Shown one piece after another: positions 31,751-46,646 of a stretch of DNA of 49,012 bases; the stretch's first letter is position 1, and each line of letters begins with the position of its first letter. Made by a program: the position numbers and the translations under genes. Source of the DNA: a virus. The stretch covers positions 1 through 49,012 of the IMG/VR virus record IMGVR_UViG_3300005832_000020; one strand, 5' to 3'. The notes beneath the pieces were generated by a model that was not told where the DNA came from, made no database searches, and saw nothing but the letters and a program-made list of their open reading frames with translations.

Positions 31751-31763
31751 AATCCTGCCCTTT

Positions 31764-31798
31764 CTCTCGATCATTACACACCGTGTAACGGTTTAGGT
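31764..31798 (-). repeat. 35-bp quasi-palindrome family, copy 5, the only copy in inverted orientation (- strand: acctaaaccgttacacggtgtgtaatgatcgagag)
   Basis: Intergenic, between 31815-32165 and 31487-31750. Confidence 0.7.
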
Positions 31799-31814
31799 TT
31801 TAGTGTAATTTCTT

Positions 31815-32165
31815 TCATTTTGGGTAATCTTTTCTTTTATAAGATTTACCCCACATATACCTCATAGGACTTACCAGTTTGCTATTTTTATTTTTAATCC
31901 AGTTGTCTATGTTATTACTAAATTCAACACAATAATCACAAACACCTAAACAATTATCTGGTTGCGAGCTTGGATACAGAAACGTACAACGATCTGGATT
32001 TTCAGTTGATTCTCTCCAGGCAACACACGGCTCTACTCTTGCACCTTGTGGAGGCGCGAGTAAACACACTGTTATCAAGTGCATTCGATAACGATAATGG
32101 GTAGTCCTCTTTTTCTCTTGCGTGGGAGCAACCGCGCCATTCATACTGTACTCCCAAATACTCAT
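31815..32165 (-). CDS. Hypothetical Cys-rich protein (116 aa)
   Basis: ATG 32165 lies 1 nt after the upstream stop. The protein has 7 Cys, including CLGVCDYC. Confidence 0.5.
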   Translation of the reverse strand: MSIWEYSMNGAVAPTQEKKRTTHYRYRMHLITVCLLAPPQGARVEPCVAWRESTENPDRCTFLYPSSQPDNCLGVCDYCVEFSNNIDNWIKNKNSKLVSPMRYMWGKSYKRKDYPK

Positions 32166-32166
32166 G

Positions 32167-32379
32167 TTACTCTACAGGCGGTGGTTTCCCGTTAGTTCTA
32201 CTAAACAGTTTCACAAACGGATTCTTAATAGCTTCGATTAATCTATCATCCCACTCGCTTTTTGTAAGTTTGGCTATCGCTAATAGTATAGCAAAAACCG
32301 ACGAAAGTGTAACTGCGTTATTCTTTACAAATTCCAAAACAATTCCATCACATCCAGTTTTTACAATCCACCAGTCCAT
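32167..32379 (-). CDS. Small membrane protein (70 aa); holin candidate
   Basis: One hydrophobic helix LSSVFAILLAIA is followed by KLTKSEWDDRLIEAI, which resembles the (T/S)xxDD(K/R)(I/L) motif of many small phage membrane proteins. TAATG junction. Confidence 0.35.
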   Translation of the reverse strand: MDWWIVKTGCDGIVLEFVKNNAVTLSSVFAILLAIAKLTKSEWDDRLIEAIKNPFVKLFSRTNGKPPPVE

Positions 32380-32651
32380 TAAAATATGTCTCCTAATAAC
32401 TCTAAACCTTTTGCAAATATATCAATTCGTGATAAAGCTGTTAAAACAATTAGCAAAATGATAACGCTGATTATTTTATAAGAAGTTCTTGACCAAAAAG
32501 ACCTGACCTTTTTAACCACCACATGATCTTGAGCATGTTCAAACGGTGTTGACCCGCTTCCTTTAAGGTCTACTGCATAAGGACAACAGGCATTCTTGAG
32601 AGCCTCTTGAATGACCTTTTTCAGATCTTCGTCAGTTGTTTTAATCTCCAT
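32379..32651 (-). CDS. Small C-terminally membrane-anchored protein (90 aa); candidate holin, antiholin or spanin-like protein
   Basis: The ATG 32651 TAATG junction. The C-terminal TM segment is YKIISVIILLIVLTAL. Confidence 0.3.
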   Translation of the reverse strand: MEIKTTDEDLKKVIQEALKNACCPYAVDLKGSGSTPFEHAQDHVVVKKVRSFWSRTSYKIISVIILLIVLTALSRIDIFAKGLELLGDIF

Positions 32652-34348
32652 TATTCCACCGAAGCTGAACTTCCTGAACTCCACGAAAGAGAAGTACCAG
32701 ATGATGCTGAAACCGACTCGTTTTTTTCCTGTGAGCTGTTTGTAACATCTTTATCTTCTATTGTGGCGAGTGGGTTGTCGCTTGTATCGTCTATTGTCCC
32801 TGTAACAGATGAATAGTTTAGCCCAATAGATACGCTATCTGTGTCATATACTATCGAGCTTCCGGTACAGACAACAGTATCAGTTCCTGTTCCGCTGGAA
32901 TAACTGAGAGATATAGGTCCAGCGTTCATCATGGTCACGTCATAGTCGCTACATAGTTCTCCAGTTGAGGCGGCTTCAACTGCTTCACTGTATACAAATG
33001 TCCATGAAAGACCGTTTGAGCCTATTGTAACTGTATTCAGGGTTGGCGGGGTACTATCTCCAGATTCATACTCAAATGCCCCCCTGTCCCATACTTCATC
33101 CCCGCCCCTTGTTATTCCCAGCATATCTAAATCATTTCCAGGAATAAGCGCTCCGGTATCATAGCCATCATTTGTTGCTGCTGTTAAAGTAAAATCTCCA
33201 CCAGCGGCATTTGTAAACGGATCTCCGGTTCCTATTTGTCGGTTGGCCTCAGTCGGAGTAGTAAAACTGTTACCGTAAAACCAGTTATAGTCGTGTGTCC
33301 CGTACAACGATCCGCTTGCGCAGGAGTTATTATAAAATATATTATTGTAGTTATACCACCCGGTGCCACTACCGGGTGATATTCCGCAATTGCCAGAACT
33401 ATTATAAACAACATTATTAAAGAATCTTACGTTATCAAACGTGCTTCCTGTATCTGTGGCGATTATACCATTCCCAGATACACAGTTTCCGTTAATAAAT
33501 AAATTGCCGTAAATATCCCATCCAGTTGGACCGGTTGTCAGTGTATCCAGGGCTATGATGCAACCAGTACCCTCCCATAAATCCCAGATATTATATCTTA
33601 CCACCACATTCGAAAGCTGGTGGAGACTCCACATCTCTGAATGTTCATCTCCGTTACTTTCGTTTTTGTAAAAGTAATTATACTCAACCAGCCATCCCGT
33701 TTCGGCAGGGGTGTTTCTGGCAGTATCTATCAAAGTCCTGCCAGAGTCGTGCAAATAAGAATACTGTAGGGTGATGTTATTAGCACCACCTGTTGAATAT
33801 ATGAGATCGTTGGCTCCGCCAACACAATCCCCATCATCCCCAACTCCCTCTATCTCCACATATCGGATGATAGAGTTAGACGAGTTGGTAATTAAAATTC
33901 CTTTGGATATGCAAGCCGACCCCGACAAGTCAATTTTTATTCCATGACCAGAGGTCCAGTTTGTTCTGGATACTCCATCTATAACCCAGTAATCGGTAGA
34001 CATCGTTACTTGACCAGCCCTAACAGCTTGTCCATCCCCATAAGTCGAAGACCATCCATCACCAGTTAAATTGCCACACTCATCGTAATTGGTAGCAGTG
34101 GCCTTTCTGATCGTGATGGTTTGCGTACCGCTTTCTGCGGTGTTAAGCGTCTTCGAGCCATAGCTCCCGTCCATCAGATAGTACGTATTCCCACGAACAA
34201 AAGTTAGTCCACTCCATGAAAGAGTATTATCCCAATCTATGCCAGTTCCAGACCCAGACCCAGAAGGTGAAACGCAATACGTTGCAGCATGCGTTGTCGA
34301 ACATACTACAAGGGAAAACATTAAAATAAGAAATGGTGTTCTTTTCAT
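32651..34348 (-). CDS. Secreted right-handed parallel beta-helix protein (565 aa) with a C-terminal Ig-like module; candidate polysaccharide depolymerase or tailspike
   Basis: Signal-peptide-like MKRTPFLILMFSLVVCSTTHA|ATYCV. PbH1-type repeats VRYNIWD, IYGNLFINGN, FFNNVVYNSSG and YNNIFYNNS. TAATG junction at 34348. Confidence 0.55.
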   Translation of the reverse strand: MKRTPFLILMFSLVVCSTTHAATYCVSPSGSGSGTGIDWDNTLSWSGLTFVRGNTYYLMDGSYGSKTLNTAESGTQTITIRKATATNYDECGNLTGDGWSSTYGDGQAVRAGQVTMSTDYWVIDGVSRTNWTSGHGIKIDLSGSACISKGILITNSSNSIIRYVEIEGVGDDGDCVGGANDLIYSTGGANNITLQYSYLHDSGRTLIDTARNTPAETGWLVEYNYFYKNESNGDEHSEMWSLHQLSNVVVRYNIWDLWEGTGCIIALDTLTTGPTGWDIYGNLFINGNCVSGNGIIATDTGSTFDNVRFFNNVVYNSSGNCGISPGSGTGWYNYNNIFYNNSCASGSLYGTHDYNWFYGNSFTTPTEANRQIGTGDPFTNAAGGDFTLTAATNDGYDTGALIPGNDLDMLGITRGGDEVWDRGAFEYESGDSTPPTLNTVTIGSNGLSWTFVYSEAVEAASTGELCSDYDVTMMNAGPISLSYSSGTGTDTVVCTGSSIVYDTDSVSIGLNYSSVTGTIDDTSDNPLATIEDKDVTNSSQEKNESVSASSGTSLSWSSGSSASVE

Positions 34349-35388
34349 TAATTTCCCCAATTTGTATCTTCTCTGACTTCGAAATTGTCTATAACAATGC
34401 TTTGGTTCTGGCGGTATATATACACTCCCGCCTTATCCATAATCTCGCCGGCATTAGTGGTGTTCGTATCCTGCCAACCACTAACTAAAGTAAAAGATGA
34501 ATCCCGTAATTCACAAACTACACTTGTGTCATCGTTATATACCAGATAAAAATAGTATGTTGCATCCGATACATCTTTGTCTGCTGGGTTCGTGCCAGTA
34601 CTCGCTCCGGTAGAATCTTCGGCGTATATGACATTTGCAGTGTTCGTGTCTGTGGTGAAATGGCAATCGGCAATAATGTCACTAGCCGATTCCAGAAAAA
34701 TGCCGAAGGCGTAAGAACCTCCTGCTCCATAGTTTAGCACGCGAAACTGCATCCTGGCATACACCGTAGAGTTTTCATGACCCGTGACAGGCGCTAACGC
34801 AGACCGCACTTCAGCAGTACCGGCAGTCACTAGGTTTGCGGAATGTGTTCCGCTCAATACTGTCCCGGTGTAGTCATCGTTCCAACCCGTTGGAGTAGTT
34901 GTCCATTGGGCATCGTCAGATTCATCTTCGAAGTCGGAATAAAAAAGGCCAGTGAAACCGCCTTGAGTAGAGTTATTCGTAAACCCCGTGGTCTTATCAT
35001 CTATTGCAGCAAGAGCATTGGTGGCAACATCGGTTATTGTCCCTTGAGTATAATCCAACCCGGTTGATATTGTTTCACCAGAGTTAACCGTTGCACTTCC
35101 GGTGCAGGTAAAAACAGAATCAGACCCCCTGGTTCCAGAAGCATATGTGAAAGTTATTGCCCCGGCAGTAGACATGGTGACGGTATAGCCATCGCACATA
35201 TCTCCGTCATCGGTGGCAGTGACAATCTCGTCATATGTGAACGTCCACGTGTCACCGTCAGCATCTATTACAAAGGTTGATAGGGTGGGTGAAGTAGTAT
35301 CTGCCCCTCCCGCATAATACCATCCAGCGGAGCAAGGCTTTATGTAATATAAATTAATTAATAAGCACAATAAAAAGATCTTTTTCAT
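34348..35388 (-). CDS. Secreted protein (346 aa): an N-terminal Ig-like module homologous to the C-terminus of 32651-34348, plus a C-terminal jelly-roll/lectin-like region
   Basis: Signal-peptide-like MKKIFLLCLLINLYYIKPCSA|G. The module DTTSPTLSTFVIDADGDTWTFTYDE...CTGS...GTITD...NALAAIDDK aligns to DSTPPTLNTVTIGSNGLSWTFVYSE...CTGS...GTIDD...NPLATIEDK. Confidence 0.5.
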   Translation of the reverse strand: MKKIFLLCLLINLYYIKPCSAGWYYAGGADTTSPTLSTFVIDADGDTWTFTYDEIVTATDDGDMCDGYTVTMSTAGAITFTYASGTRGSDSVFTCTGSATVNSGETISTGLDYTQGTITDVATNALAAIDDKTTGFTNNSTQGGFTGLFYSDFEDESDDAQWTTTPTGWNDDYTGTVLSGTHSANLVTAGTAEVRSALAPVTGHENSTVYARMQFRVLNYGAGGSYAFGIFLESASDIIADCHFTTDTNTANVIYAEDSTGASTGTNPADKDVSDATYYFYLVYNDDTSVVCELRDSSFTLVSGWQDTNTTNAGEIMDKAGVYIYRQNQSIVIDNFEVREDTNWGN

Positions 35389-38300
35389 TAATCTTCCTCG
35401 GCATAATACCATATTTCGAATATCACTTGGTGGGTTGTTTCAGTATAAGCTGTGCCAAACTCTAAATATAAAACCTTGCCGTTAGCTACTGCTGCGCCGC
35501 TGTTAATATTTGCATTCGTATCTTCAGACGAAACACCAGCAGAAGTGTCTAACACATCTATTACAGCAGCATTGGCAACCCCTATGAATGCATCAGCATA
35601 TTTAAGATCGAGATCTACTTCAGTTGTTGGATCTGCTTCAAATGAAACCTTCCACTCCGTAATAATTATACCTTCAGGGGCATCGTCACCTATTGTCATC
35701 AAAAAGAGTCTGTCCACTGCCCCATCACAAACCGTTTTTGGATCAAAGGACCACATTTTATGTTCTAGAAGTGATTTAGCGGCTTCACCCTGAATTTCTC
35801 CAGCGGAACCACCATGAAAAACTAATTGGTCATCTGTTGACTGAAGACCAATTTGGCCTTCTGCGCCAAGGGCCATATCCGAAGTACTATTCCAAATTTC
35901 AAATGTAGTTGCCCCTCCGAAATCGTGTACGCCACTCCAAGCCTGACCTGCTACTTTACCAAGCGCAGCACCCTCAATGCTCAACACACCCGAAGATGCA
36001 GTGAGTGTGTTTTCAGAGGCATGGCTTAGTTCAAGTTGAGTACTAGCTGTAATTGTAGTACCAGAGATCGTTGTATCGGCAGCAATGGTTGCCGCCGTAA
36101 GATCCCCTATGACATCCACATCATTGTCGAAATCAAACCTGTCTTCACCGTTCATGTAGGTCAACGAACCCTGATTGCCAACAGCATCAAAAGCCAAAAC
36201 CACATCAGCGTCAGTCCCTACCGCACCAAACGTTACAGCAGCAGCGTTATTGGTAAAGTTAGCTTCTGCTGTTCCAGTAATCGCAGTACCAGAGATAGTC
36301 GTATCGGCAGCTATTGTTGAGGCCGTAAAAGCTCCGTCAACATCCATTGTCGCTCCTGTAACATTAATCGAACCAGCGGCGTTGAATGTTATGACTTCGT
36401 TTCCAGTAATGCCCACAACTGCACCGTCAGCCAATAAAACATCATCTCCTACAGCTACATCACCAGTAGATGTTATCGTACCACTTGCAAGTATATCACC
36501 AGTTACGTCGAGTTCTACGGTTGGAATCGCTTTCTTTATTCCAACAAATCCATCAGGAGCAAGATTTATATCTCCTTCAGCAGCATCTACATCAACTGTA
36601 GCTATAGTAAGTGCTCCATCGTCAGCAACCGTAAATGTTGCATAGTTTGTAGCGTCATAACCCAATCTTAACTGCTCAGTTGTTAGGATATTTGAAATCT
36701 TCTTTGTTGAAGTAATTGTTAGATCATTTACAACGTCTGCATCGCCAATATCTGTTACGTCAAGTAGAATATAATTCCCCATGTCTGTATAGGTTAATGG
36801 AGAAGCCGTTTGTAAAACGCCATTACTACTTGAAGTCCCTATATACCCCGCAGCCGCATCAGAATCAACTTTAACTGTAAAAGCATCCGTCGTTCCACCG
36901 ATAGGAATAGCTGCTACGTCATTGTTTCCTACATATAAAATATTCTCGTCTGTATCCCAACACAAAGATCCCTCTGCTGTATATCCAGTGCAAGCCGTAT
37001 TCTGGGGTACTCTAAATGTTGCAGTTCCAAGCACAATGGCGTTCCCAGCCTTATCGAACTGCCAAGAATTGGTTGTATTTCCTCCAAGATACATATAGGG
37101 TTCAGTCGCAGATAAGAACTCAAGAAGTGGAGTAGCTGTAGGCCCGTCAGAGTCATAAGCTCCCAAGTACATATATTTAGTCGAAGCCGAGGCTGCATAC
37201 GCAAGATAGGCATCTGTAACCGTTATTGGCCCTGTAGTATGAGTCGGCATAGTAATCGTTAATGCAGACCAATCCTGAGTTGTGTTCAAGGCACTTGCGG
37301 GAACCGTACCTGATGAAATATTTGTTCCAGCAAGGGCAGTTATTGAAGCGCCAGCACCCACTAAATTTGTAGCCGTGACATCTCCTGTAGTAGTAATATC
37401 TATAGCATTAAAATCAAATGTTGCTATATCTGTTGATGTGCTTACTCCAATTGTATCTGCCGTTCCAAATTCAAAAGAAAATGCTTCTGTATCGGTATCA
37501 GTATTCAGAGACGTAAACGTTAATCGTTCTTCGTCTTCCCACCACTGCATAGTAAGGTTTGAAAAGTTTCCATCAAAAAGTAGGTAATAATCATTGGCGT
37601 CTACATCCATACCAATAAACATATTGCCAGAAGACGTTATACTGCCATCTAATACCACAGTTCCACCGTCTGAAGTAAATGTGTGGTCATCAACAAGGGC
37701 AGAGCCATAGTCCATATCATCATCTGTTCCAATATCTAATAATGGAGTAGCTACAGAAGTCGTTGCTGTAATAACACCAGTTGATGTAATTGCCCCACAA
37801 TCAGTAGTTGTTATATCTGCGCAGGTTACATCTGCAAAATCTATTGAATCATCGTCTATCGTATCGTCAGTTATTTGTTCTCCGTCAAGTGCAGTTAAAT
37901 TAGCACCACCACCATAAAATTCAGTTGATGTAATTGAAGTGGCACCAGCCACAACACCTGCGTCTATTGTAATGGTTCCATCAAGTGTGATAGTCTGATC
38001 TGTATACGGAGTAATCGCAAGAGTAGAAGCACCAGCAGAAGAAATAGTGTTCCCGTTAATTGTTATATCATCAACAGTTAAGGTTGTAAGTGTCCCAACA
38101 GAGGTAATTGCTGATTGTGCAGTACCCGTCACAGTTGCTGCCGTTGTTGCTTCTCCTGTTAAAGCTCCTTCAAACGTAGTAGAGAACAAGGTTTCACTAA
38201 ACGGATTGTAGTACAAATTCGGAGAAGATTCTATAGCTACGTTACCACCATCTGCATCTGCATCAGCTACGAAAGTTAAAACGTTGTTTTCGGGAGTGTC

Positions 38301-40631
38301 GGGGTTGTTACCTACTGCAAGTTGAGTTGCAACGGCAACCGAACCAGCAATGGAACAATGCCACTGGTCATCTACTGTAGAATAAATACATGAAAGTAAA
38401 TCACCGCTTTGTGCAGTATAGTTTACACCACCCCCTTCTAACCCCTCACCCTCAAAAACAAATGTAGTGTAATCATCGTTTACGATTACAAACAGAAGTT
38501 GTCCGTTTAGTGGTGATCCATCAAAGTCAGTTATAACACCAGGATCTCCTGATGTATTTTGTGTTATATGAATCATACCACCAGATACATCAGGGGTAGA
38601 ATCTCCTGCTGTAATCAAATTCGGAGCATCGTACAATAATGGAACAGCAGCAGTGGTATCGTCTAAAACACTTGTAATTGTTCCACCCGCAGCAAGTTCG
38701 TCGAGAGTTTCCAAAGCAGCTTGAAGAGTTGTGTCTCCTGCTCCCAAGTGACCGTCGAAATTGGTTACATCAGTTGGAACATCTACTGCCGCAACCTGTC
38801 CAGCACCTGCACCCCAATCTATGTGGGTGTCTTTAATAAGATCTGTAGCGGTTATCGCTGTAGTAAAAGTTGGGCTGTCTATTGTTGGGGCTTGATTAAA
38901 TACCGCTAATGGAGAACCAGTTGCAGAACCCGTTTCATTACTCAAGACTCCGTAGAGTTGAGCAGAAGTTGTTGCAGCAAAAACACTCAGGTTATCATTA
39001 ACATTAGGAACAGCCACTCCACTCTCAGTCACCACAGTTGGATTCAAGGTTCCTGTGATCCCCAAAATTGTAGTATCGTCTGCAACTGGCCCAACCACTA
39101 CACTATGAGTGTTCCCAGCATCGTAAAAAGTTTGAGTTCCTGCATGGTGAACAACAATATCTCCCTTATCGCCAGTATTCCCAGCATTTATAACACCTGT
39201 TGTAATAGTGTTACCAGCAGAACTAGCCGAAGCAAAATTTATAGTCCCTACAGCAGAATATCCATTAGCCGCTGTGATAGTATCATGATTAGAATTCCAC
39301 GTGTCTCCTGCTGCTACATAGGCAGAGTATGCCGTACCAGAACTTGTAATAATAAAGGTATTTGCTATAGTTACTACCGTAGCGTTATTACCCGTACTAT
39401 CTAACCGCACGCCTGTTGTAGCAAAACTTGAAGAAGCTTGACTTGCTACAATAAACCTGTTCCTACCAATAGTAGCAGATGTCGCAGTTCCGTACAACCA
39501 AAGACCTGTAGCAGATCCACTTCCAGTTGTAGAAACTTCTATAATATTATCATTTATTATAAAACTTCCTGTACCACCACTAACGGTTTCAAAGCCGACA
39601 ACTTCATCATTAGTATCATTACAAGTTACATAAATTTCGTTGTTAAATAAAAGTAAACTGGCCGTTCCTTCATGAGACACAGCTGATTGCGTTCTTGCAG
39701 TTTCTGTCGTACCTCCAGTAATTGAATAAATTATACGAGTTTGATAAACCCTCATAGATCCGCCAGTAACATTTAAAGCTTTCATTAAATAGTCACCAGC
39801 ACTTTTTGTTATTGTAATATTACATGTTATTATAGCACTATCACTTCCACTTGACACTATAGCATTTGAATTAGCCCCCAAGGTTCCATAATTTACAACT
39901 ATACCAATATCTTGTATAGTACCTTTTGCAGACGGAAACGTAACCGCAGTTCCTGAAGTTGGAGTAATTCTTGTGGTAGTTCTACCACTACCCAATATAT
40001 CCACATAGTTCTTCATCACTACGTTTTCAGCATAGTCACCAGGAGCTACTTTTATAAGATACCTTTTTGAAGTCGTAGCATCCGTGATTGCGGCCAAAGC
40101 TCCTGAAATCGAAGTGTAATCAGCACCTGACTTCGCTACTGTTACCTCTTGGGCGTAGGGCTTCCTAACCCCCGTTAAATTGGCACCAGAGCCTGTCGGC
40201 GCTAAAACATCAGTCCCAATAACCAATCCAAGGGTAGTCCTTTGAGCAGCAGCGTTGGCATCGTCTAAAATAGCCTCTCCCGCAGCTGTAACCGTAACTG
40301 CTGAGGTGGCTCCGCTTGAAATTTTTACAAGACCATTATAATCCTTAACATTAGCCTCTAAGCCGCCAACCTCATGATCCAGAAAATCATTATCAATAGC
40401 ATCTCCATTGATTGCATCGGGATCTATATTAGCAGTAAAGGCTTTAGGAAGGTTCAGTAAAGTTACCTTCCTGGTCCCAGGAGAAACACTAGGATTATTG
40501 GTAGTTCCAACAATATCATCACTAGTTGGATCAGTATCTGGCGTAAACCCAGAAGGTGCAGTAGCCTGTGACCAAGAAACACCCGAAAAAAGAAACAAAA
40601 TAGCTAACGTTAAAAATAAAACCTTTTTCAT
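35388..40631 (-). CDS. Giant fibre/adhesin-like protein (1747 aa) with an N-terminal signal peptide
   Basis: gggagaat precedes ATG 40631. The N-terminus is MKKVLFLTLAILFLFSGVSWSQA|TAPS. The fibre-type motif AGEAILDDANAAAQRTTLGL is present. The composition is T/G/A/S/D/N-rich, with internal repeats such as TIAADTTISGT twice. Confidence 0.55.
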   Translation of the reverse strand: MKKVLFLTLAILFLFSGVSWSQATAPSGFTPDTDPTSDDIVGTTNNPSVSPGTRKVTLLNLPKAFTANIDPDAINGDAIDNDFLDHEVGGLEANVKDYNGLVKISSGATSAVTVTAAGEAILDDANAAAQRTTLGLVIGTDVLAPTGSGANLTGVRKPYAQEVTVAKSGADYTSISGALAAITDATTSKRYLIKVAPGDYAENVVMKNYVDILGSGRTTTRITPTSGTAVTFPSAKGTIQDIGIVVNYGTLGANSNAIVSSGSDSAIITCNITITKSAGDYLMKALNVTGGSMRVYQTRIIYSITGGTTETARTQSAVSHEGTASLLLFNNEIYVTCNDTNDEVVGFETVSGGTGSFIINDNIIEVSTTGSGSATGLWLYGTATSATIGRNRFIVASQASSSFATTGVRLDSTGNNATVVTIANTFIITSSGTAYSAYVAAGDTWNSNHDTITAANGYSAVGTINFASASSAGNTITTGVINAGNTGDKGDIVVHHAGTQTFYDAGNTHSVVVGPVADDTTILGITGTLNPTVVTESGVAVPNVNDNLSVFAATTSAQLYGVLSNETGSATGSPLAVFNQAPTIDSPTFTTAITATDLIKDTHIDWGAGAGQVAAVDVPTDVTNFDGHLGAGDTTLQAALETLDELAAGGTITSVLDDTTAAVPLLYDAPNLITAGDSTPDVSGGMIHITQNTSGDPGVITDFDGSPLNGQLLFVIVNDDYTTFVFEGEGLEGGGVNYTAQSGDLLSCIYSTVDDQWHCSIAGSVAVATQLAVGNNPDTPENNVLTFVADADADGGNVAIESSPNLYYNPFSETLFSTTFEGALTGEATTAATVTGTAQSAITSVGTLTTLTVDDITINGNTISSAGASTLAITPYTDQTITLDGTITIDAGVVAGATSITSTEFYGGGANLTALDGEQITDDTIDDDSIDFADVTCADITTTDCGAITSTGVITATTSVATPLLDIGTDDDMDYGSALVDDHTFTSDGGTVVLDGSITSSGNMFIGMDVDANDYYLLFDGNFSNLTMQWWEDEERLTFTSLNTDTDTEAFSFEFGTADTIGVSTSTDIATFDFNAIDITTTGDVTATNLVGAGASITALAGTNISSGTVPASALNTTQDWSALTITMPTHTTGPITVTDAYLAYAASASTKYMYLGAYDSDGPTATPLLEFLSATEPYMYLGGNTTNSWQFDKAGNAIVLGTATFRVPQNTACTGYTAEGSLCWDTDENILYVGNNDVAAIPIGGTTDAFTVKVDSDAAAGYIGTSSSNGVLQTASPLTYTDMGNYILLDVTDIGDADVVNDLTITSTKKISNILTTEQLRLGYDATNYATFTVADDGALTIATVDVDAAEGDINLAPDGFVGIKKAIPTVELDVTGDILASGTITSTGDVAVGDDVLLADGAVVGITGNEVITFNAAGSINVTGATMDVDGAFTASTIAADTTISGTAITGTAEANFTNNAAAVTFGAVGTDADVVLAFDAVGNQGSLTYMNGEDRFDFDNDVDVIGDLTAATIAADTTISGTTITASTQLELSHASENTLTASSGVLSIEGAALGKVAGQAWSGVHDFGGATTFEIWNSTSDMALGAEGQIGLQSTDDQLVFHGGSAGEIQGEAAKSLLEHKMWSFDPKTVCDGAVDRLFLMTIGDDAPEGIIITEWKVSFEADPTTEVDLDLKYADAFIGVANAAVIDVLDTSAGVSSEDTNANINSGAAVANGKVLYLEFGTAYTETTHQVIFEIWYYAEED

Positions 40632-40639
40632 ATTCTCCC

Positions 40640-40843
40640 TCATTCTGTTAACCAACAATCTGCGGTTCCCTCTATAAGCCAACAATCTGCGGTACCTTCC
40701 AATAACCAGGTATCTCCGGATGGAGTTGCCACTCCTTTACCAGTTGAACCTACACCAAAAAGTAAAAATTCATCTTTACTTGCCCAAGAGTAAACAGCCA
40801 TTCCCAAGGCTAATAATATTACAAGACTGATAATCTTTTTCAT
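40640..40843 (-). CDS. Small secreted peptide (67 aa) ending in the tandem nonapeptide EGTADCWL(I/T)
   Basis: The N-terminus is MKKIISLVILLALGMAVYSWA|SKDE. The C-terminal LLEGTADCWLIEGTADCWLTE is encoded by a 27-bp tandem repeat. Confidence 0.45.
   Translation of the reverse strand: MKKIISLVILLALGMAVYSWASKDEFLLFGVGSTGKGVATPSGDTWLLEGTADCWLIEGTADCWLTE
40652..40693. repeat. 27-bp-period tandem repeat (2 units; core ccaacaatctgcggt at 40652-40666 and 40679-40693)
   Basis: Read directly. It lies in frame within 40640-40843. Confidence 0.85.
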
Positions 40844-40844
40844 C

Positions 40845-43800
40845 TTAGTACCATGATAATCCCGTTCCAGTTGATGGTGAAACCCCCGTTCCGGTTGCTA
40901 TTGACCCAGAGGTTTTACTTGCAATTTGAATTGCAATAGATCCTAAATCAACTCCAACCGGAGTTAAATCCGTGTCTATATCATTTCCAGCAGCATCTTG
41001 GATCACAACTCCGTTTAAAGAAAAAGCAGACACAGACGCAGCCTGAAGATCTGAAGTCGCCATATTCTCCGCTGTAATTAATTGGAAGCAAATAGAGGTT
41101 CCAGAAACAGACGATCCGTAAGCATTCACATTCCCAGTTACTGCCCCCGTATTTACAAGCAACGTCATTGTCGGCGCACTACCAGATATAATAGATACAG
41201 GTTCATCATAAGTAATACATATAGGGATTTCTGCATAAACCGTGCTAAAGTTACCGGTATTCGATCCAGACCACGACGAAGCCACGGGCGATGTTGTGTC
41301 CGTAGCAATGTTGAACACTTCCATTTTCGTGATTGCGGTGTAATAATTGGAATCAGAATAGCCACCCGGCAACGTAGTTGTTAGCGTATTGTCTACAGCA
41401 GTAGAATCTTTTATCCACGCTATCTGTGAACCGTAATTGCCGTTTCTTAGATTGGTATTGCTATTCCACCAGCCATGAACCAAGTACGTCTTTGTTTCAT
41501 CTATTGTGTAAATGATTTCATCCGTAACAGTTGTTTGATTAGCTGTCACAGTGGTCCCGTTACTTCCACTATCAAACGTAATTCTTGTTGGGGTGGTAGT
41601 ACAAGTACTGGTAGCACTTTGTTCACAGATAGACATTCCACTTATCACCATGTTAGCTGTAAGTGGGGCTTGAAGCGTAAACCTTACCTTAGTACCTGAT
41701 GTAGTTATTGCAGCAGCGGGCAAGATCATCCTCTTGTTTCTATCTGCAACATTAATCGGTTCAACACTTGAGGTTAATGCTATACCCGTCCAACTTTCTG
41801 ACCAACCACCCCCGCCTGCCGTTACGGTAATTTCAACCGGCCCATCTTGGCATTGACCACCATCGTTATCTGTAACCGTTAGGGTTACATTAAACACACC
41901 CACTGTAGCCATTGTTACAGAAGCATTATCTTCATTTGTCAGATTAGACCCACCCCCGTCCAAATCCCAAAGGTAACTTGCAATGGTTCCATCTGAATCT
42001 GCCGCAGTAGAATTAAAATCAAGCGTATCGTTTTGGGAAATAGTTTGTGCTGTAGGAGAATCTATCGAACAAGTAGGCAGTTCATTAGGAGGATTGACTT
42101 GGACCTCAAGTCTATCTAACAACACAATATTAGACGACCTTGTGTAACCCGTTGGAGTAGTATATAAAGACTCATCGTTTAGAGTAGCAGCAGACTTATA
42201 AATACTTGAATTTGCAGCAGATGTAAGCCTTCTGATATATGCTGGCCCATCGTTGAACCACAGGTGGACCAGATAGTCTTTGGTTTCATCTATCGCAAAT
42301 TCTAACGAATCAGAATACTGAGAAGCTGATGTTGATAAAGTAACCTGTGATAATCCTCCAAATTTAACTTCCGTTGGAGTAGTTGTGCAATTCCAGTAAG
42401 AATCAACCAAAGGGTCTGCTGAAGTTGTTGCCCTTTCGCAAATCGAAACGTGATCTATGACAGATGCATTTCCGGTGTTCCCAGTAAACCTTAACCTACA
42501 GGAATCTCCGCTAATAGAAATATCCGCAGCTTTTAAAACCATTCTTCTATTATGATCAGCAGTAGCATTGGAAATATCTGTATCCAATGCAACAGACCAT
42601 GAAGTTTGCCAGTTTGTTGTAGTTCCTGTTTCGTCTAAAAACGCTCCTATTTCAGGCGGATCGCTTTTTGTCCCAGTAACTACCGCACTGGGCCATACCG
42701 ATGAGTTTTTAAGATCAACCGTATACCCACCAATAGCGACACCCGCTCCAATCAATGGGGATTCTGCATTCCCAGGCCATAATTGGAAATCAGCGGTGCT
42801 GTTATATTGAGGATCTGCTGTAAGAGAGTTTGTAGAACCAGACCACGAACCAAACGTTGCCGTAGTATATGTAGTTCCTGTCCAATAAACCCTATTGGCC
42901 GTAGCTGAATTGTAAAGAAGGTTGTTGCTGTATGTTCCAGAACCTACACTATCGTAAATTGTATAACCAGTTGCCTTTGTTAGATAAATCGAATTATTTT
43001 TAACTTCAAATCCAGTAGAACCAGCTAATCTATATATTCCGTATGTTACATTGCCAGTTGTATCTAAAATAGAATTATTATAAATTAACGTTCCAGAACT
43101 TCCAGTACTATCATAAATATTTATAAAACCAGGATAAGTAGGCGCGCCACCACAATCTTTACCTATATTATTATAAAACTCTGCGTCTACAGTATAAGTT
43201 CCTGCTCTAAACATACTTCTAACTTGGTAGAATTTATTTCTATACGTTTTTACTCTAGCTGTTCCGTATGTATTAATCCTACCAAGCCTAACACCAACCT
43301 CAAGCCCCAATCCATAGAAATAGTTATCATAAACATTTATATCAGTTGATGTATATCCATTACCCCCATTAATACCAATCCCATAGTGACGCCCAGAAGA
43401 CCCTCCCTCTCCGTATCCTTCATCCATGTGAATCGTATTGTCATAAACATTTACATTGGAAGAATGTTTAATATCTATACTTTGTTCACCAGCATTCCCA
43501 AGGTCGTTATTATAAATACTTAAATCAGAAGTAGAATCTTCTGTTTGAATACAATCTCCATTAACGTTATTAATTGTATTGTCATGGATGAGGTAGCTTA
43601 CCGTTGCGCCCCTTCCAGTTCCAGTAAAAATTCCTATGTTATCAATACCATTAAGTGTGGGCGTTGTGCTCACACCCAAATTGCTAATCGTGCAGTTCTT
43701 GATCTCCACTTCACCAGTTACAGATTGACCAATTACAATACCATTATGGCCTTCATACTGTGCACCTTGCCCTGATAACTCCCCATCAATATCAACCCCA

Positions 43801-44267
43801 TCTATCATGGGAGATATTTGAGATCCTCCGATATAAACCAACATGGACTTTGAAACAGCAAACTCCTGGCCCACACAAGAAATATCTTTAAGAAGAAGAT
43901 CTTCAAAATCCTGTGTAATGTAAATGCATCTATTTGTATCTCCGTCTAATTCTGGTTTGCCATCTATTGTAACATCTTTAGCATCGAATGAATCCGCTGT
44001 AACACTACCCCTAACAGTTAAATTTGTTACTCCGTCCGATGTTCCACCGAGAGTTAATGTAGCATCATTAAATGAATCCCCTGCTCTTATAATAACTATA
44101 TCACTATTCCCAAAAGAATATGAGTTTATTTTCCCAATAGTTTCCCATGCTGTGGCAGGGGATGTACCAGCCGCTGCGTCAGATCCACCGTTCTTAACAT
44201 AATACGTTGCTGCAAAAGACGGAGAAGCACAGGTTAAAATAAAAAATATTAGGAGATATTTTTTCAT
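40845..44267 (-). CDS. Secreted parallel beta-helix protein (1140 aa) with a PKD domain and a C-terminal Ig-like module; candidate depolymerase or tailspike
   Basis: The N-terminus is MKKYLLIFFILTCASPSFA|ATYYVKNGGSDAAAGTS. PbH1 repeats IHDNTINN, IYNNDLGN, VYDNTIH, VYDNYFYG, FYNNIGKD, IYNNSILD and VKNNSIYL. PKD motif DSDGTIASYLWDLDGGG...VFNVTLTVTDNDGG. Confidence 0.6.
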   Translation of the reverse strand: MKKYLLIFFILTCASPSFAATYYVKNGGSDAAAGTSPATAWETIGKINSYSFGNSDIVIIRAGDSFNDATLTLGGTSDGVTNLTVRGSVTADSFDAKDVTIDGKPELDGDTNRCIYITQDFEDLLLKDISCVGQEFAVSKSMLVYIGGSQISPMIDGVDIDGELSGQGAQYEGHNGIVIGQSVTGEVEIKNCTISNLGVSTTPTLNGIDNIGIFTGTGRGATVSYLIHDNTINNVNGDCIQTEDSTSDLSIYNNDLGNAGEQSIDIKHSSNVNVYDNTIHMDEGYGEGGSSGRHYGIGINGGNGYTSTDINVYDNYFYGLGLEVGVRLGRINTYGTARVKTYRNKFYQVRSMFRAGTYTVDAEFYNNIGKDCGGAPTYPGFINIYDSTGSSGTLIYNNSILDTTGNVTYGIYRLAGSTGFEVKNNSIYLTKATGYTIYDSVGSGTYSNNLLYNSATANRVYWTGTTYTTATFGSWSGSTNSLTADPQYNSTADFQLWPGNAESPLIGAGVAIGGYTVDLKNSSVWPSAVVTGTKSDPPEIGAFLDETGTTTNWQTSWSVALDTDISNATADHNRRMVLKAADISISGDSCRLRFTGNTGNASVIDHVSICERATTSADPLVDSYWNCTTTPTEVKFGGLSQVTLSTSASQYSDSLEFAIDETKDYLVHLWFNDGPAYIRRLTSAANSSIYKSAATLNDESLYTTPTGYTRSSNIVLLDRLEVQVNPPNELPTCSIDSPTAQTISQNDTLDFNSTAADSDGTIASYLWDLDGGGSNLTNEDNASVTMATVGVFNVTLTVTDNDGGQCQDGPVEITVTAGGGGWSESWTGIALTSSVEPINVADRNKRMILPAAAITTSGTKVRFTLQAPLTANMVISGMSICEQSATSTCTTTPTRITFDSGSNGTTVTANQTTVTDEIIYTIDETKTYLVHGWWNSNTNLRNGNYGSQIAWIKDSTAVDNTLTTTLPGGYSDSNYYTAITKMEVFNIATDTTSPVASSWSGSNTGNFSTVYAEIPICITYDEPVSIISGSAPTMTLLVNTGAVTGNVNAYGSSVSGTSICFQLITAENMATSDLQAASVSAFSLNGVVIQDAAGNDIDTDLTPVGVDLGSIAIQIASKTSGSIATGTGVSPSTGTGLSWY

Positions 44268-44269
44268 AT

Positions 44270-44304
44270 ACCTAAACCGTTACACGTCATGAAGCGATTG
44301 AGAT
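44270..44304 (+). repeat. 35-bp quasi-palindrome family, copy 6 (acctaaaccgttacacgtcatgaagcgattgagat)
   Basis: Intergenic, between 44312-44767 and ATG 44267. Confidence 0.7.
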
Positions 44305-44311
44305 CTTTTTA

Positions 44312-44767
44312 CTACCTCGGAGTAATAACCCAAATCTTTATCTGGAGTTCTGCACTATGAACGTCTTGGTTGGCTATTGCCAAGACCAAAGGTCCATCTA
44401 CACCAATGGGACCGGTTTCAGATGCAAGTGTATCATAAGCAGAAACGCGTTCAGTAGCTGTGGCACTGCGATCGTCGAGAGCAGTAGTGCCAAAAATTTC
44501 CACCCCTTTGTAAGTCAATGTGATATCATAAGCTGCGGTTGGAGCAACAGTACCAGGATCGGTCATTATCTCCCTAACAAAACCGACAATATCTTGAGTT
44601 GTGAAGGTGTTATACGTCCCGGCGGCTGAGTCGAAGACAATATCCAAGGTTAAAACACAAAACCCACCATAGCAACTGTATCGTTGAGTTGTCTCAGATG
44701 CCGAAAACGCCTGTGTAGTCCCCAAAAGCAAAACCAGCGAACAAACTAAGCCTTTAAAAAGCTTCAT
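44312..44767 (-). CDS. Secreted hypothetical protein (151 aa)
   Basis: gggagga lies 8 nt upstream of ATG 44767. The N-terminus is MKLFKGLVCSLVLLLGTTQAFSA|SE. The ORF overlaps the TerL stop by 14 nt. Confidence 0.55.
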   Translation of the reverse strand: MKLFKGLVCSLVLLLGTTQAFSASETTQRYSCYGGFCVLTLDIVFDSAAGTYNTFTTQDIVGFVREIMTDPGTVAPTAAYDITLTYKGVEIFGTTALDDRSATATERVSAYDTLASETGPIGVDGPLVLAIANQDVHSAELQIKIWVITPR

Positions 44768-46646
44768 CAAATAAATCCTCCCAAAGCGAACTTGTTATCT
44801 TTCTTGTTTCATATTTTTCTTCCAGTTGCTGAGCAGCAATAGCTGTCTGTAAGCACCACTCGGCGTTGGTCTTTGGAATACCTTCGATGGTAGGGAACTG
44901 AGGATGTTCTACTACTCTTTCCCTCAGTGAACTTGTATCTTCTTCTACCTTCTCGTCAAAAGGAACCACCTGGTTAATCTGCAGCGCAATTCCAAGGCAC
45001 AGTACTTCGTCGTCGTTGCAACCAGATTTGGCTCCGGGCTTACCGTTTTGGTTGAGAACAAAGGTAGTCATCTCTTTTACACAACGAGGATCAGTCCATC
45101 CAGCACCCTCTATGAGCCATTGTTTAAGTCCGCTGACCAGTTTTCTCCTCGAATCAGTCCCCGTCCACCAGCCTTTGCGGTAGGAAATACTTTCTTTAGT
45201 GGTATCATACCGAGGCATCATGAAAGGATTGGGAACTTGGTAGATCTCTGCACACAAATCAAAAGTGGCAAGGCCAGGGCCGTTGGTTTCTATTGCGTAC
45301 CAAGGGTCGCCGTAGAATTCGCAGACCATCTTAACCATTTTGGCGAGTTGAATCTCGTCCAGGTTGGTATGAACTGTAGCCACAACGTCTTCGTTTGTTC
45401 GTTCGAGGACTTTGATTATGCCAAAATCTCCCCATTCCAACCCTTCAGCAACGTCAACAGCTACAACATAAGACCGTTTGGGGTCAGGCGGAGTGTAAAC
45501 CAAAAACAAATTAGCTGTAGGGTCGAGTAACCCGTGGTCAATTTGGCTTTCCCGGAGTTCGACGAGCTTGAGTTTGTCCAAATCAAACTCGTAATAAGCC
45601 CTGGGCATTCTCTTACTCTTGAGAAGCGTAGACATTCGTTGAGCTGCACGGCCTTCAAAGACCGGAGAACCGGCTCCTATGTAATCAATGTCTAGTTCCT
45701 GGGCTATCTCCGAGGGAGACCTTCTTCTGCACTCACGATCGTACCAAGGGGATCTTATCAACCTTTCTTCATCCCCATCCCAGTTTTCTGGTAACGGCCA
45801 CCTACAATAACCGCCTTTGATCTTAAGTGGGTGCAACGTCCAATGTAATCTTGTTTTTGTTTTACTAGGATCAGTGATCAGATCATAATACTGCCCACCT
45901 GCCCCAAACGGTGTTGAAAGGGGAATGCGGCATGGAGTAGCATCGCCAGCCGCTGTCCAGGCACTCTTATCAGTTGATTCCCATTTGGCAAACTCGTCAA
46001 ACATAACTGCAGCATAACGACCGCCGGTACTAAAATTAGCGTTGTTTGATTCGCCAGTAATGGATGCGCCAGTAGCTGGGTTCTGCAAACGCATAAAATT
46101 GTCGTGCTGTTTGCTGTTAAAACCTTCTGGCCAAAGCCAGCGCGGTAACTTGTAGAATGCGTATCGAGCTTTTGGTAACAAAGCCCGCATATCCCCTTTT
46201 TTGTCCACGTAGTCTTCAATTCTACTACCGAGAAGGAAATCCGTACCTCCAATTGGATTGAGCCAAAACCACAAAAAGGTTAGTATGATCATCCAAGAGA
46301 CACCCATGTCTCTACTCTTTTCTATCGGAAAATCAGTACCGCTGTTTATAGCTTCTACAAGAGCGAGAAGCATCTTATCTTGATAGGGATAGGTGCAAAA
46401 AGGCTGGTTGTGTCGGGGTCTCTTGCGAACGTCGAGAGTATAAAAGAAAGCGTTGAAAGCGAAGATAATATCCCGGTAAAAAAGTTCTTTTACCTTTTTC
46501 CTAAAAACCAAATCAACCGCCGCTCGTTGGAGGATGTTACGTCTCCACTTGAGATTGGTTCGGTAATCTTTTGGAAACTGGGTATTATTTATGAAAGGCT
46601 CGCCACTCAAGCTCTTTACCCCCATGAAAACCTGTTTTTCCTTCAA
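44754..46646 (-). CDS. terL: Terminase large subunit
   Basis: Walker-A-like IEKSRDMGVSW and Walker-B AAVMFDEFAKWE, with a C-terminal nuclease-sized domain. The start is ambiguous between TTG 46646 and ATG 46625. Confidence 0.7.
   Translation of the reverse strand: MKEKQVFMGVKSLSGEPFINNTQFPKDYRTNLKWRRNILQRAAVDLVFRKKVKELFYRDIIFAFNAFFYTLDVRKRPRHNQPFCTYPYQDKMLLALVEAINSGTDFPIEKSRDMGVSWMIILTFLWFWLNPIGGTDFLLGSRIEDYVDKKGDMRALLPKARYAFYKLPRWLWPEGFNSKQHDNFMRLQNPATGASITGESNNANFSTGGRYAAVMFDEFAKWESTDKSAWTAAGDATPCRIPLSTPFGAGGQYYDLITDPSKTKTRLHWTLHPLKIKGGYCRWPLPENWDGDEERLIRSPWYDRECRRRSPSEIAQELDIDYIGAGSPVFEGRAAQRMSTLLKSKRMPRAYYEFDLDKLKLVELRESQIDHGLLDPTANLFLVYTPPDPKRSYVVAVDVAEGLEWGDFGIIKVLERTNEDVVATVHTNLDEIQLAKMVKMVCEFYGDPWYAIETNGPGLATFDLCAEIYQVPNPFMMPRYDTTKESISYRKGWWTGTDSRRKLVSGLKQWLIEGAGWTDPRCVKEMTTFVLNQNGKPGAKSGCNDDEVLCLGIALQINQVVPFDEKVEEDTSSLRERVVEHPQFPTIEGIPKTNAEWCLQTAIAAQQLEEKYETRKITSSLWEDLFDEAF

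Follow-up and report, generated by a model that had tools for sequence, protein, structure and literature searches.

Six consecutive genes with predicted Sec signal peptides in the late operon of an uncultured tailed phage

The IMG/VR virus record IMGVR_UViG_3300005832_000020, a stretch of 49,012 nucleotides that is called the window here at its whole length, comes from a tailed phage and carries a block of six consecutive genes (g1 to g6) between its terminase and portal genes. Each of the six products begins with a predicted Sec-type signal peptide. The block may encode a late-expressed, Sec-exported and non-virion set of proteins that bind or degrade glycans, have the envelope or matrix of the host as their target and leave the cell at lysis, a reading to which we give an even chance. 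It is favoured by the mature g2 and g6 proteins, which have no docking domain, by the signal peptides found throughout their families, by a clade of related phages that lacks the block, and by a small protein of the structural module (W164) that is an independent fibre candidate. An earlier, sequence-only reading of this DNA had offered three options, namely an exported non-virion arsenal, receptor-binding proteins that reach the virion by an unconventional route, and a captured host surface-protein cassette. The first is now favoured by the starts of mature g2 and g6, by their families and by the clade without the block, and the others less so. The host-derived cassette fits as an origin of g2 and g6, whose families nearly all bear signal peptides and include members on long contigs, but not of g4, which is built from phage tail-fibre modules.

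Organisation of the block and its predicted signal peptides

The genes are numbered in transcription order and all lie on the minus strand, from 44767 down to 32651. The block measures 12.1 kb.

g1: 44312-44767, minus strand, 151 amino acids; predicted signal peptide MKLFKGLVCSLVLLLGTTQAFSA, cut before S, residues 1-23, nucleotides 44699-44767
g2: 40845-44267, minus strand, 1140 amino acids; predicted signal peptide MKKYLLIFFILTCASPSFA, cut before A, residues 1-19, nucleotides 44211-44267
g3: 40640-40843, minus strand, 67 amino acids; predicted signal peptide MKKIISLVILLALGMAVYSWA, cut before S, residues 1-21, nucleotides 40781-40843
g4: 35388-40631, minus strand, 1747 amino acids; predicted signal peptide MKKVLFLTLAILFLFSGVSWSQA, cut before T, residues 1-23, nucleotides 40563-40631
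g5: 34348-35388, minus strand, 346 amino acids; predicted signal peptide MKKIFLLCLLINLYYIKPCSA, cut before G, residues 1-21, nucleotides 35326-35388
g6: 32651-34348, minus strand, 565 amino acids; predicted signal peptide MKRTPFLILMFSLVVCSTTHA, cut before A, residues 1-21, nucleotides 34286-34348

The six N-termini quoted by the sequence-only reading are all present at their places, and each open reading frame (ORF) exists and starts with ATG. Its figure of about 25% of the genome also agrees with the value obtained here (24.8% of the unique genome). All six N-termini, judged by a rule-based scan and by inspection, are predicted to be Sec-type signal peptides of the kind cut by signal peptidase (SPase) I. 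They begin with MK(K/R), have one to three basic residues, and continue with a core of about 8-15 residues that carries no charge, abounds in Leu, Ile and Phe and reaches a Kyte-Doolittle maximum of 2.9-3.4 over 10 residues. The predicted cleavage sites lie at position 19-23, with Ala at -1 and Ser, Thr, Cys or Ala at -3. The site of g1 is ambiguous, with Phe at -3 for a cut between AFSA and S and an equally plausible cut between TQA and FS, and the hydrophobic core of g5 is broken by Asn. A twin-arginine motif and a proper lipobox are absent from all six, which thus do not look like substrates of the twin-arginine translocation (Tat) pathway or of SPase II; proper lipoboxes occur in small cassette genes of the related loci L005, L014, L111 and L114. 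The Leu/Ile/Phe-rich cores with AXA-type sites behind them also differ from signal-anchor-release (SAR) domains. In a hydrophobicity scan of every ORF of the window, no other credible gene had such an N-terminus, the leftover matches being antisense or internal ORFs. Random placement among about 60 genes would bring all six side by side with a chance of about 1e-6. The core point of the sequence-only reading, that Sec-type signal peptides are unusual on late-operon genes of a tailed phage, is therefore upheld.

Hydrophobic N-termini that arise from wrong start codons or by chance are an explanation that can hardly be right. Longer upstream TTG or GTG starts are available for g1, g4, g5 and g6, but they would still place the same hydrophobic segment near the N-terminus. 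GGAGG-like Shine-Dalgarno sequences precede the ATG-MK(K/R) starts of these four genes, while a weak AGG is all that stands in front of g2, and g3 starts one base after the g2 stop. In addition, the hydrophobic segments are conserved in homologues on independent contigs, and the adjacency of the six genes is itself improbable under chance.

The junctions of the block are tight. TerL and g1 overlap by 14 nucleotides, g1 and g2 are separated by a 44-nucleotide spacer, g2 and g3 by 1 nucleotide, and g3 and g4 by 8 nucleotides, and TAATG overlaps join g4 to g5, g5 to g6, and g6 to the next gene. The claimed coupling to the late operon through TAATG thus holds at three junctions, whereas the others overlap, abut or have a spacer. 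Similarly, TerL and the portal gene do flank the block, but four small ORFs, two of them with a single transmembrane segment, separate g6 from the portal gene. Promoter- and terminator-like sites in the block region were no more frequent than in shuffled sequence and formed no flanking pairs in crude consensus scans. Together with the overlapping or near-abutting junctions, this suggests that the block is co-transcribed with the late operon. The mature g1, g2, g3, g5 and g6 proteins have even numbers of Cys (2, 14, 2, 4 and 10, respectively), which make up 1.2-4.4% of residues against 0.48% in the structural proteins. This pattern, as a soft line of evidence, fits exported proteins with disulfide bonds.

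Three other ideas about the block were rejected. A promoter and terminator of its own were dismissed with site counts at chance, and a compositionally foreign island with a G+C content of 0.422 in the block and 0.417 in the structural module. Signal-peptide-coding DNA as a recombination linker was dismissed with a pairwise nucleotide identity of only 0.30-0.65.

The beta-helix proteins g2 and g6

Homologous proteins and loci from other contigs are cited below by P and L numbers, respectively. The recognised parts of g2 and g6 are as follows.

g2 beta-helix domain: residues about 20-545, nucleotides 42633-44210, minus strand, predicted right-handed; Pfam Beta_helix, E-value 3e-5, 24.0 bits against a cut-off of 25.9
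g2 PKD domain: residues 739-815, nucleotides 41823-42053, minus strand; PKD_4, 38.7 bits (cut-off 27), E-value 1e-9; PKD, 38.5 bits (cut-off 23.5)
g6 beta-helix: residues 22-430, nucleotides 33059-34285, minus strand, right-handed parallel in an AlphaFold2 model
g6 immunoglobulin (Ig)-like module: residues 430-533, nucleotides 32750-33058, minus strand, followed by a Ser-rich tail

The sequence-only reading had named two beta-helix proteins, one of them with a PKD domain. The fold of g6 is now modelled and the PKD domain of g2 lies above its cut-off, whereas the Beta_helix match of g2 falls below the curated one. The PKD domain matches those of collagenases in the PDB (E-value 1e-6) and has a beta-rich region of beta-sandwich type on each side, the two being similar to each other. 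The C-terminal region of g2 resembles the Ig-like module of g5 and g6 by eye only, and BLAST gave no match. An exhaustive HMMER search found relatives of g2 in 4884 cluster representatives, hundreds of which span residues 5-545. Homologues of the N-terminal domain are mostly 500-700 amino acids long and have the form of a signal peptide followed by ATYYVKNGGND..GLSD..AW, with a signal peptide in at least 42 of the 49 that were inspected. Two members, P0257 and P0258, have no signal peptide and start with MT[TD]YYVKNGG; residue 3 of P0257 aligns to residue 21 of g2 (E-value 8e-51).

For g6, Pfam gave no match, and a sequence search of the solved structures in the PDB gave none that was significant. 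Its AlphaFold2 model, made with 48 homologues, has a mean predicted local distance difference test (pLDDT) score of 80.9 and exceeds 90 over most of residues 22-430, so that the check by AlphaFold and Foldseek that had been proposed gave a confident right-handed beta-helix. Foldseek matched the model with a probability of 1.0 to the pectate lyase Pel9A (PL9, 1ru4), PL6 alginate lyases, GH136 and tailspikes, and also to RbmB. The 74 homologues of g6 are mostly 420-450 amino acids long, with the pattern of a signal peptide followed by A(A/N)xYVRxGAxG..NGSDWxNA ... GTWDRGAFEY. At least 51 of them have a signal peptide by a heuristic, and more by eye. Many of them occur on long, chromosome-sized contigs (573, 498 and 107 kb), with Bdellovibrio and Methyloglobulus records included. 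One of them, P0151, has Poly_export, glycosyltransferase, Wzy_C polymerase and acetyltransferase genes as neighbours, which is an exopolysaccharide (EPS) or capsule locus. Members without a signal peptide start with MA[NT]KYVRAGA (P0174, P0198). The mature g2 and g6 proteins start at the beta-helix cap, which corresponds to residues 2-3 of the homologues without a signal peptide, and have no N-terminal virion-docking domain.

Captured host cargo that resembles a moron or a lysogenic-conversion cassette and has no lytic role would agree with the g2 and g6 beta-helix families, which are nearly all signal-peptide-bearing and have members on chromosome-sized contigs. We nevertheless consider it very unlikely. 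No autonomous promoter or terminator rises above chance and the junctions overlap or nearly abut, and on these crude scans the block is not a classical moron. The block and the structural module have equal G+C contents, so any capture would not be recent. Moreover, g4 is phage-derived, no integrase was found among the ORFs scanned, and g1-led signal-peptide cassettes are kept across at least ten related but diverged phages with a TerL identity of 48-58%.

As an observation on the g6 family, the 6.8-kb contig L098, which has no PHROG matches, carries at 1474-5350 tandem proteins of this family without signal peptides (439 and 421 amino acids, with a MANKYVR.. start), followed by a 429-residue ORF.

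The fibre-like protein g4 and the Ig-like protein g5

The sequence-only reading had described g4 as a 1747-residue protein with a phage-fibre motif, and it proved to be a mosaic of tail-fibre modules. These modules and the Ig-like module of g5 are listed below.

g4 fibre motif AAQRTTLGL: residues 106-144, nucleotides 40200-40316, minus strand; matches repeats of P0125 and P0126
g4 segment in common with P0121: residues 158-587 (about 430 residues), nucleotides 38871-40160, minus strand; 47% identity, reads like a beta-helix region
g4 tail-fibre repeat of about 95 residues: residues 814-907, nucleotides 37911-38192, minus strand; 60-64% identical to repeats of P0123 and P0124
g5 Ig-like module: residues 29-132, nucleotides 34993-35304, minus strand; 47% identical over 106 residues to residues 430-533 of g6

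P0123 and P0124 are giant fibres that end in a Peptidase_S74 chaperone. The remainder of g4 is long and rich in Thr, Ala, Gly and Asp. As a whole, g4 has no match in Pfam (no Peptidase_S74 included), PHROG, NCBIfam or the PDB, and tblastn found none in GenBank phages. Among its relatives, P0122, P0123 and P0126 lack a signal peptide, while P0121 and P0125 have one. P0122, which matched g4 in a HMMER search, lies on a contig that holds RecT and RusA genes. The locus of P0121 (L093 8805-15672, contig ERR1554595_443) places it just after a PHROG tail protein and before transmembrane proteins and a DPBB_1 protein, and two further small ORFs with signal peptides flank it. Because the phage is unrelated, fibre-like proteins with signal peptides are not confined to one phage family.

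For g5, no Pfam, PHROG or NCBIfam match was found, and a search of the PDB gave only non-significant matches to Ig V-domains. Its C-terminal region of about 200 residues reads like a lectin-type jelly roll.

The small proteins g1 and g3

The mature part of g1 is a conserved domain of about 125 residues with two Cys (residues 32 and 37), and the gene leads the cassette. Relatives keep members of the family, some of which have a signal peptide and some of which lack it. No match to g1 was found in Pfam, PHROG, NCBIfam or the PDB, and a structure prediction from the single sequence was unusable (pLDDT 47.5). A remote relation of g1 to a 123-residue leader protein of another block type was rejected, with an hhalign probability of 0.5%.

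The mature g3 peptide has 46 residues and a tandem WL(L/I)EGTADC repeat, and its C-terminal end reads WLLEGTADC WLIEGTADC WLTE. No homologue and no Pfam or PHROG match of g3 was found. Its sole family match, to NF053838 (a model of the Bdellovibrio hit-locus protein Bd0108), has an E-value of 0.004, lies below the cut-off and covers the signal peptide alone. This likeness and the g6 homologues in Bdellovibrio-like metagenome-assembled genomes (MAGs) give a very weak hint at the host.

The slot between TerL and the portal gene in related phages

TerL has about 1050 metagenomic homologues, and about 60 loci with a TerL at least 45% identical were recovered. A single-protein TerL scan of IMG/VR gave nothing, and an alignment was used for the scan instead. 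In a neighbour-joining tree of TerL, a short-gap clade, with 0.3-2.2 kb between TerL and the portal gene, is separated from a long-gap clade (3.5-13.3 kb) to which the window belongs. The slot between the two genes is hypervariable and the block is its cargo. Two short-gap genomes, L094 and L096, which were reached by walking via a neighbouring gene, were traced as far as the structural module extends. They hold homologues of the portal, scaffold and capsid proteins of the window and of its 196-, 283-, 831-, 220-, 485- and 1064-residue proteins. No large fibre genes are in view in either, and a scan with the 1064-residue protein for the tail ends of relatives gave nothing. Since the short-gap clade has the virion module yet lacks the block, the block is not part of the conserved virion core.

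The long-gap slots also hold genes for a holin (GTA_holin_3TM) and an endolysin (Peptidase_M15_4), and their cargo is of different types. One type, without signal peptides, consists of a conserved 123-residue leader and DUF2341 proteins (L002, L003, L007, L013, L100). Cassettes led by a g1 homologue with a signal peptide are present in the window and in L005, L006, L008, L102, L103, L110, L111, L114 and L122, the contigs of L102, L103 and L110 including the leader gene only. Where the contig reaches far enough downstream, further genes with signal peptides stand behind the leader: L005 has five of them, L114 at least five, L111 four and a lipoprotein gene, L122 three, L006 two and L008 at least two. 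These relatives are diverged, with a TerL identity of 48-58%. The search for the terminase, signal-peptide block and portal layout in related genomes, which the sequence-only reading had proposed, thus found similar cassettes in the same slot. Across the family, signal-peptide-like ORFs make up 43 of 301 from TerL to the portal gene against 2 of 186 from the portal gene onward (Fisher p = 7e-8). Several of the loci come from SDBS-SDBV assemblies, which we take to be Loki's Castle samples. The SDBS-SDBV accession sets are cited by papers on marine and deep-sea sediments (PMC6401483; bioRxiv 10.1101/577767).

Homologues of g1 without a signal peptide are found in L014 (two copies) and L104/L105, and their sequences start with the first residue that is conserved in the mature domain. 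L014 is a TerL sister of L114, whose g1 homologue has a signal peptide. Rare members of the g1, g2, g4 and g6 families therefore lack the signal peptide and start at the mature N-terminus, which marks the signal peptide as a discrete and evolutionarily switchable addition and not as alignment noise. The hydrophobic N-termini are kept in most of the g2 and g6 homologues inspected and in the g1-led cassettes, and these rare members are without them. A 440-residue protein of L014 was rejected as a homologue of g2 (BLASTP E-value 4.7), only a short beta-helix-like N-terminal motif being alike.

The runs of small signal-peptide and lipoprotein genes beside large ones in L005, L111 and L114 recall superinfection exclusion or receptor masking, in which exported proteins would stay in the envelope, bind surface structures without degrading them, and keep competing phages from adsorbing or passing their DNA into the cell. 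Phage signal peptides are best known from such exclusion and surface-modifying proteins, including T5 Llp, lambda Bor and Lom, and T4 Imm and Sp. Moreover, g5 has the look of a binding domain, as do the PKD and Ig-like modules. On the other hand, expression from a late operon coupled to TerL would be late for exclusion, and 12 kb with two enzyme-like beta-helices and a 1747-residue fibre far exceeds the known exclusion genes. With no integrase or lysogeny gene among the ORFs scanned, this explanation appears quite unlikely.

Several minor observations concern the slot and the genes near it. The first gene after TerL in all long-gap relatives encodes a small protein of about 110-160 residues from one of several families. 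A third kind of such a gene, small and beta-rich (111-113 residues, '..IHALQYLITGSGTVSLTLETS..'), is found at L115 12312-12647 and L123 2250-2591. Lipobox-bearing small ORFs, some of them in adjacent pairs and spanin-like, lie at L014 17806-18206, L005 7300-7464, L111 15298-15420 and L114 10632-11239. With these spanin-like lipoprotein pairs and a T5-type peptidase endolysin in relatives, the host is probably diderm. In the short-gap genomes, the gene after that of an 822-828-residue protein (L094 13295-14587; L096 13346-14152 and 14180-14620) combines a conserved N-terminus ('..K.R.PY..L..SL...F..P.RY.KES') with a C-terminus that is divergent and very rich in Cys, a pattern typical of receptor-binding proteins, and the window has no counterpart of it. 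After the capsid gene, L094 has at 8164-9057 a protein of a 297-318-residue kind that is also present in L027-L029, with PbH1-like repeats and no signal peptide. The matching position of the window holds a 204-residue ORF (26477-27091) with no detectable similarity.

Proposed action and the place of receptor binding

In the proposed mechanism, the six products would be made late, alongside the virion parts, and threaded through SecYEG. Cores of such high hydrophobicity would lend themselves to co-translational targeting, an advantage for the 1747-residue g4. Signal peptidase I would then cut the products, which would fold in the envelope. By Sec export and this cleavage, they would not meet the virions that assemble in the cytoplasm. 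The set would comprise the lyase- or hydrolase-like beta-helices g2 and g6 with their PKD or Ig-like modules, g5 with an Ig-like and a putative lectin-like part, the giant fibre-like g4, and the small g1 and g3. Within the infected and probably diderm cell, they may bind and cut capsule, EPS or surface glycans of the host in transit through the periplasm, and lysis would free them as soluble enzymes or adhesins. Stripping of receptors from the dying cell and its debris could reduce superinfection and the loss of progeny on debris, and the matrix of a sediment biofilm could be loosened for the burst. Bacterial enzymes offer models for such an action. VexL, a beta-helix lyase of a capsule locus, degrades nascent capsule only if a signal peptide brings it to the periplasm, and is inert when kept in the cytosol (PMC6003464). 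The bacterial EPS hydrolase WceF resembles tailspikes and is likewise exported (PMC7949094).

A protein outside the block bears on where the receptor-binding function of the virion lies.

W164: 24303-24797, minus strand, a 164-residue fibre-like protein without a signal peptide, between the genes of the 283- and 831-residue structural proteins and inside the conserved structural module

Its motif F.NA.HDH..AAGGG is common to P0122, the g4 relative without a signal peptide (68% over 28 residues, E-value 1.6e-9). W164 has no PHROG and no Pfam match, none in GenBank phages by tblastn, and no counterpart in the short-gap relatives L094 and L096. By its motif and position, it is a candidate virion-borne (short tail) fibre independent of the block, and the best candidate for the receptor-binding protein of the window itself. 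The idea that the mature N-terminus of g4 shares this motif was rejected, the alignment score being below the shuffle mean.

The same data bear on an exported receptor-binding apparatus, in which some or all of g2, g4, g5 and g6 would be fibres or spikes that fold in the oxidising periplasm and join fibre-less particles at lysis. Here g1 might serve as a chaperone or adaptor, the action of holin, endolysin and spanin would mix the compartments, and receptors may be cleared before lysis. Fibres are known to attach spontaneously in vitro to fibre-less T4 particles. Several features speak for this account: g4 and Peptidase_S74 tail fibres have repeats in common, and about 430 residues of g4 are shared with P0121, which bears a signal peptide and lies just downstream of a PHROG tail protein in another phage. 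The slot of relatives holds large proteins without signal peptides (DUF2341, LamG and the 440-residue protein) together with signal-peptide-free g1 homologues, and the signal-peptide state of g1 differs between the TerL sister lineages L114 and L014. The block is also translationally coupled to packaging genes. On the contrary, mature g2 and g6 have no N-terminal tail-docking domain, their families are nearly all signal-peptide-bearing and include several g6 homologues from long contigs, such a block is absent from one clade of relatives, and W164 supplies a fibre-like protein without a signal peptide in the structural module. A search of the literature found no described Sec-exported tailed-phage fibre or comparable cassette, and we know of no precedent for such fibres. 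We regard an exported receptor-binding apparatus as unlikely but not negligible, in view of the fibre parts of g4, the signal-peptide-free versions of g1 in the slot, and the lack of an identified receptor-binding protein in the window. A further and quite improbable scenario is that a podovirus-like clade of sediments relocated its apparatus for host recognition and depolymerisation from the cytoplasm to the outside. The proteins would be exported by Sec, fold in the envelope with disulfides and with g1 as a partner, strip the glycans of their own cell first, and be loaded onto tail-complete particles after lysis, with the signal peptide as an evolutionary switch.

The preferred reading, an exported and non-virion set, has to be weighed against several points. 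Sequence modules of established fibres occur in g4 alone among the six, and they derive from phage tail fibres, including those that bear Peptidase_S74. The closest g4 relative with a signal peptide, P0121 (1512 residues), lies in the tail region of an unrelated phage. At 1747 residues, g4 would be hard to fit into the periplasm and has no evident route across the outer membrane. The signal-peptide calls come from an explicit rule-based scan, conservation in homologues and inspection rather than from a trained predictor. In L014 and L104, signal-peptide-free g1 homologues share the slot with large proteins that also lack signal peptides and may well be virion receptor-binding proteins. No receptor-binding protein of the virion was positively identified in the window, where most structural ORFs are matchless. 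The template modelling scores of g6 in Foldseek are modest (0.3-0.58); the modelled fold is enzyme-like, and activity and substrate are inferred from it with no catalytic residues pinned down. Finally, the MAG bins of TerL relatives (Nitrospirae, Saprospiraceae and others) were rejected as a guide to the host, their contigs being short and not reliable.

Relation to known systems

The sequence-only reading had pointed to no described system that matches the block. None fits the whole six-gene cassette, but partial precedents exist in stxAB, lom and bor, and in VexL and WceF. The Shiga-toxin genes stxAB of lambdoid phages and lambda lom and bor are late-operon cargo with signal peptides, non-virion and near the lysis genes, and the release of Stx needs phage lysis. 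Like the block, they lie in or beside the late operon close to lysis genes and encode Sec signal peptides. In contrast, they are one or two small genes of temperate phages with a benefit for the host or for virulence, whereas the block has six genes, 12 kb and no detected lysogeny gene. The block also differs from them by its beta-helix, PKD/Ig and fibre-like products, its tight junctions, and the conservation of its cassette type across a clade.

The enzymes VexL, WceF and RbmB (PDB 9ozd) share with g6 a signal peptide and a right-handed beta-helix, the g6 model matches RbmB, and the homologue P0151 lies in an EPS cluster. VexL has disulfide bonds, and the even Cys counts suggest the same for the block proteins. 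On the other hand, these three are chromosomal housekeeping genes for glycan processing, WceF uses Tat whereas the block has predicted Sec signals, and the phage copies add Ig-like or PKD modules. Phage tailspikes and fibres (P22 gp9, CBA120 TSPs, and K1F endosialidase with Peptidase_S74) resemble the block in the beta-helix fold, the g4 repeat and their late genes. They lack signal peptides and bind to the particle through an N-terminal domain, whereas g2 and g6 show the reverse on both counts and g4 is without Peptidase_S74. Judged by these features, the block would not belong to the tailspike class as usually defined, as a signal peptide is present and a docking domain absent in g2 and g6. 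Phage lysis proteins exported by SAR domains or Sec (fOg44 Lys44, P1 Lyz, T4 RI) are likewise late, have N-terminal export signals and adjoin holin genes. However, they are single small lysis enzymes or regulators, and SAR domains, in which Gly, Ala and Ser abound, have a weak hydrophobicity, unlike the Leu/Ile/Phe-rich cores of the block. No muralytic domain was detected in the block proteins by Pfam or NCBIfam. By analogy, the block resembles late-operon exported cargo crossed with depolymerases of EPS loci such as VexL, WceF and RbmB. What sets it apart is its size, its all-signal-peptide organisation behind a conserved leader, its recurrence in a sediment clade, and the on/off polymorphism of its signal peptides.

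The late operons of tailed phages are assumed to encode parts for cytoplasmic assembly and a few lysis proteins. In this phage, a quarter of the genome encodes proteins that bear export signals, and the same arrangement is seen again in other members of a clade that is common in estuarine and deep-sea sediments. If the block yields enzymes or adhesins that are exported, phages would attack the capsule or biofilm matrix of the host from inside during infection and not just from the virion tip, which would matter for the spread of phages in biofilms, for sediment carbon turnover and for efforts to find soluble depolymerases. Homologous g1, g2, g4 and g6 domains that occur with and without a signal peptide provide a natural experiment on the possible exchange of tailspike-like and cellular EPS-processing enzymes between virion, cytoplasm and envelope. 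If the block proteins instead prove virion-borne, a basic rule of tailed-phage assembly would be overturned.

Genome and late operon

The ends of the window are identical (nucleotides 1-120 equal 48893-49012), which makes it a complete genome of about 48.9 kb that has terminal redundancy or was assembled as a circle. This uncultured phage is on record from metagenome data alone. A 19.7-kb piece of it is present in JGI sample 3300001371, which is cited in a paper on sediments of the lateral bays of the Columbia River estuary, Baker and Youngs Bay (PMC4589670). A DNA search with the right-hand 22 kb found no match among GenBank phages. The phage carries its own replication genes, among them those for DNA methylases, for a fusion of uracil-DNA glycosylase (UDG), exonuclease and PolA, and for a DUF3987 and an AAA_24 protein. 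The window ORFs that were scanned included no integrase or other lysogeny gene, and no tRNA genes were found in the window.

The late genes form a single long operon on the minus strand, with the best promoter-like site at 48572-48544. Its order is a TerS-like small ORF, a D12 methylase gene, TerL, the six-gene block, four small ORFs, and the genes for portal, scaffold and major capsid protein, followed by about 11 kb of structural ORFs. Its main features are as follows.

TerL: 44754-46646, minus strand; phrog_2, E-value 1.8e-17; upstream flank of the block, with its 3' end over the start of g1
Two small ORFs with a single transmembrane segment each: 32167-32651, minus strand, directly 3' of g6; the first has its ATG at 32651 and shares one base with the g6 stop
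Portal: 29562-31484, minus strand; phrog_156, E-value 1.5e-18, and a weak P22_portal match; downstream flank of the variable slot
Major capsid protein: 27151-28530, minus strand; phrog_14242, E-value 3e-58

The two single-transmembrane ORFs after g6 are candidate holin-type lysis proteins, as inferred from the GTA_holin_3TM and Peptidase_M15_4 genes that occupy the same slot in relatives. No homologue of the endolysins of relatives (Peptidase_M15_4-like, lysozyme-like or SLT) was found in the whole window by tblastn. The structural ORFs in these 11 kb or so are mostly without a PHROG, Pfam or NCBIfam match, and searches of the PDB with profiles of the 831- and 1064-residue proteins gave none.

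Three side observations concern single regions of the window. The position of the lysis genes of relatives (31487-32684 in the window) holds only the two small single-transmembrane ORFs and a Cys-rich ORF of 116 residues. On the plus strand, a protein of 822 residues (10614-13082) has UDG-superfamily, 3'-5' exonuclease and family A DNA polymerase domains fused. In the ORF at 8675-10309, ParB_N is fused to an N6/N4 DNA methylase.

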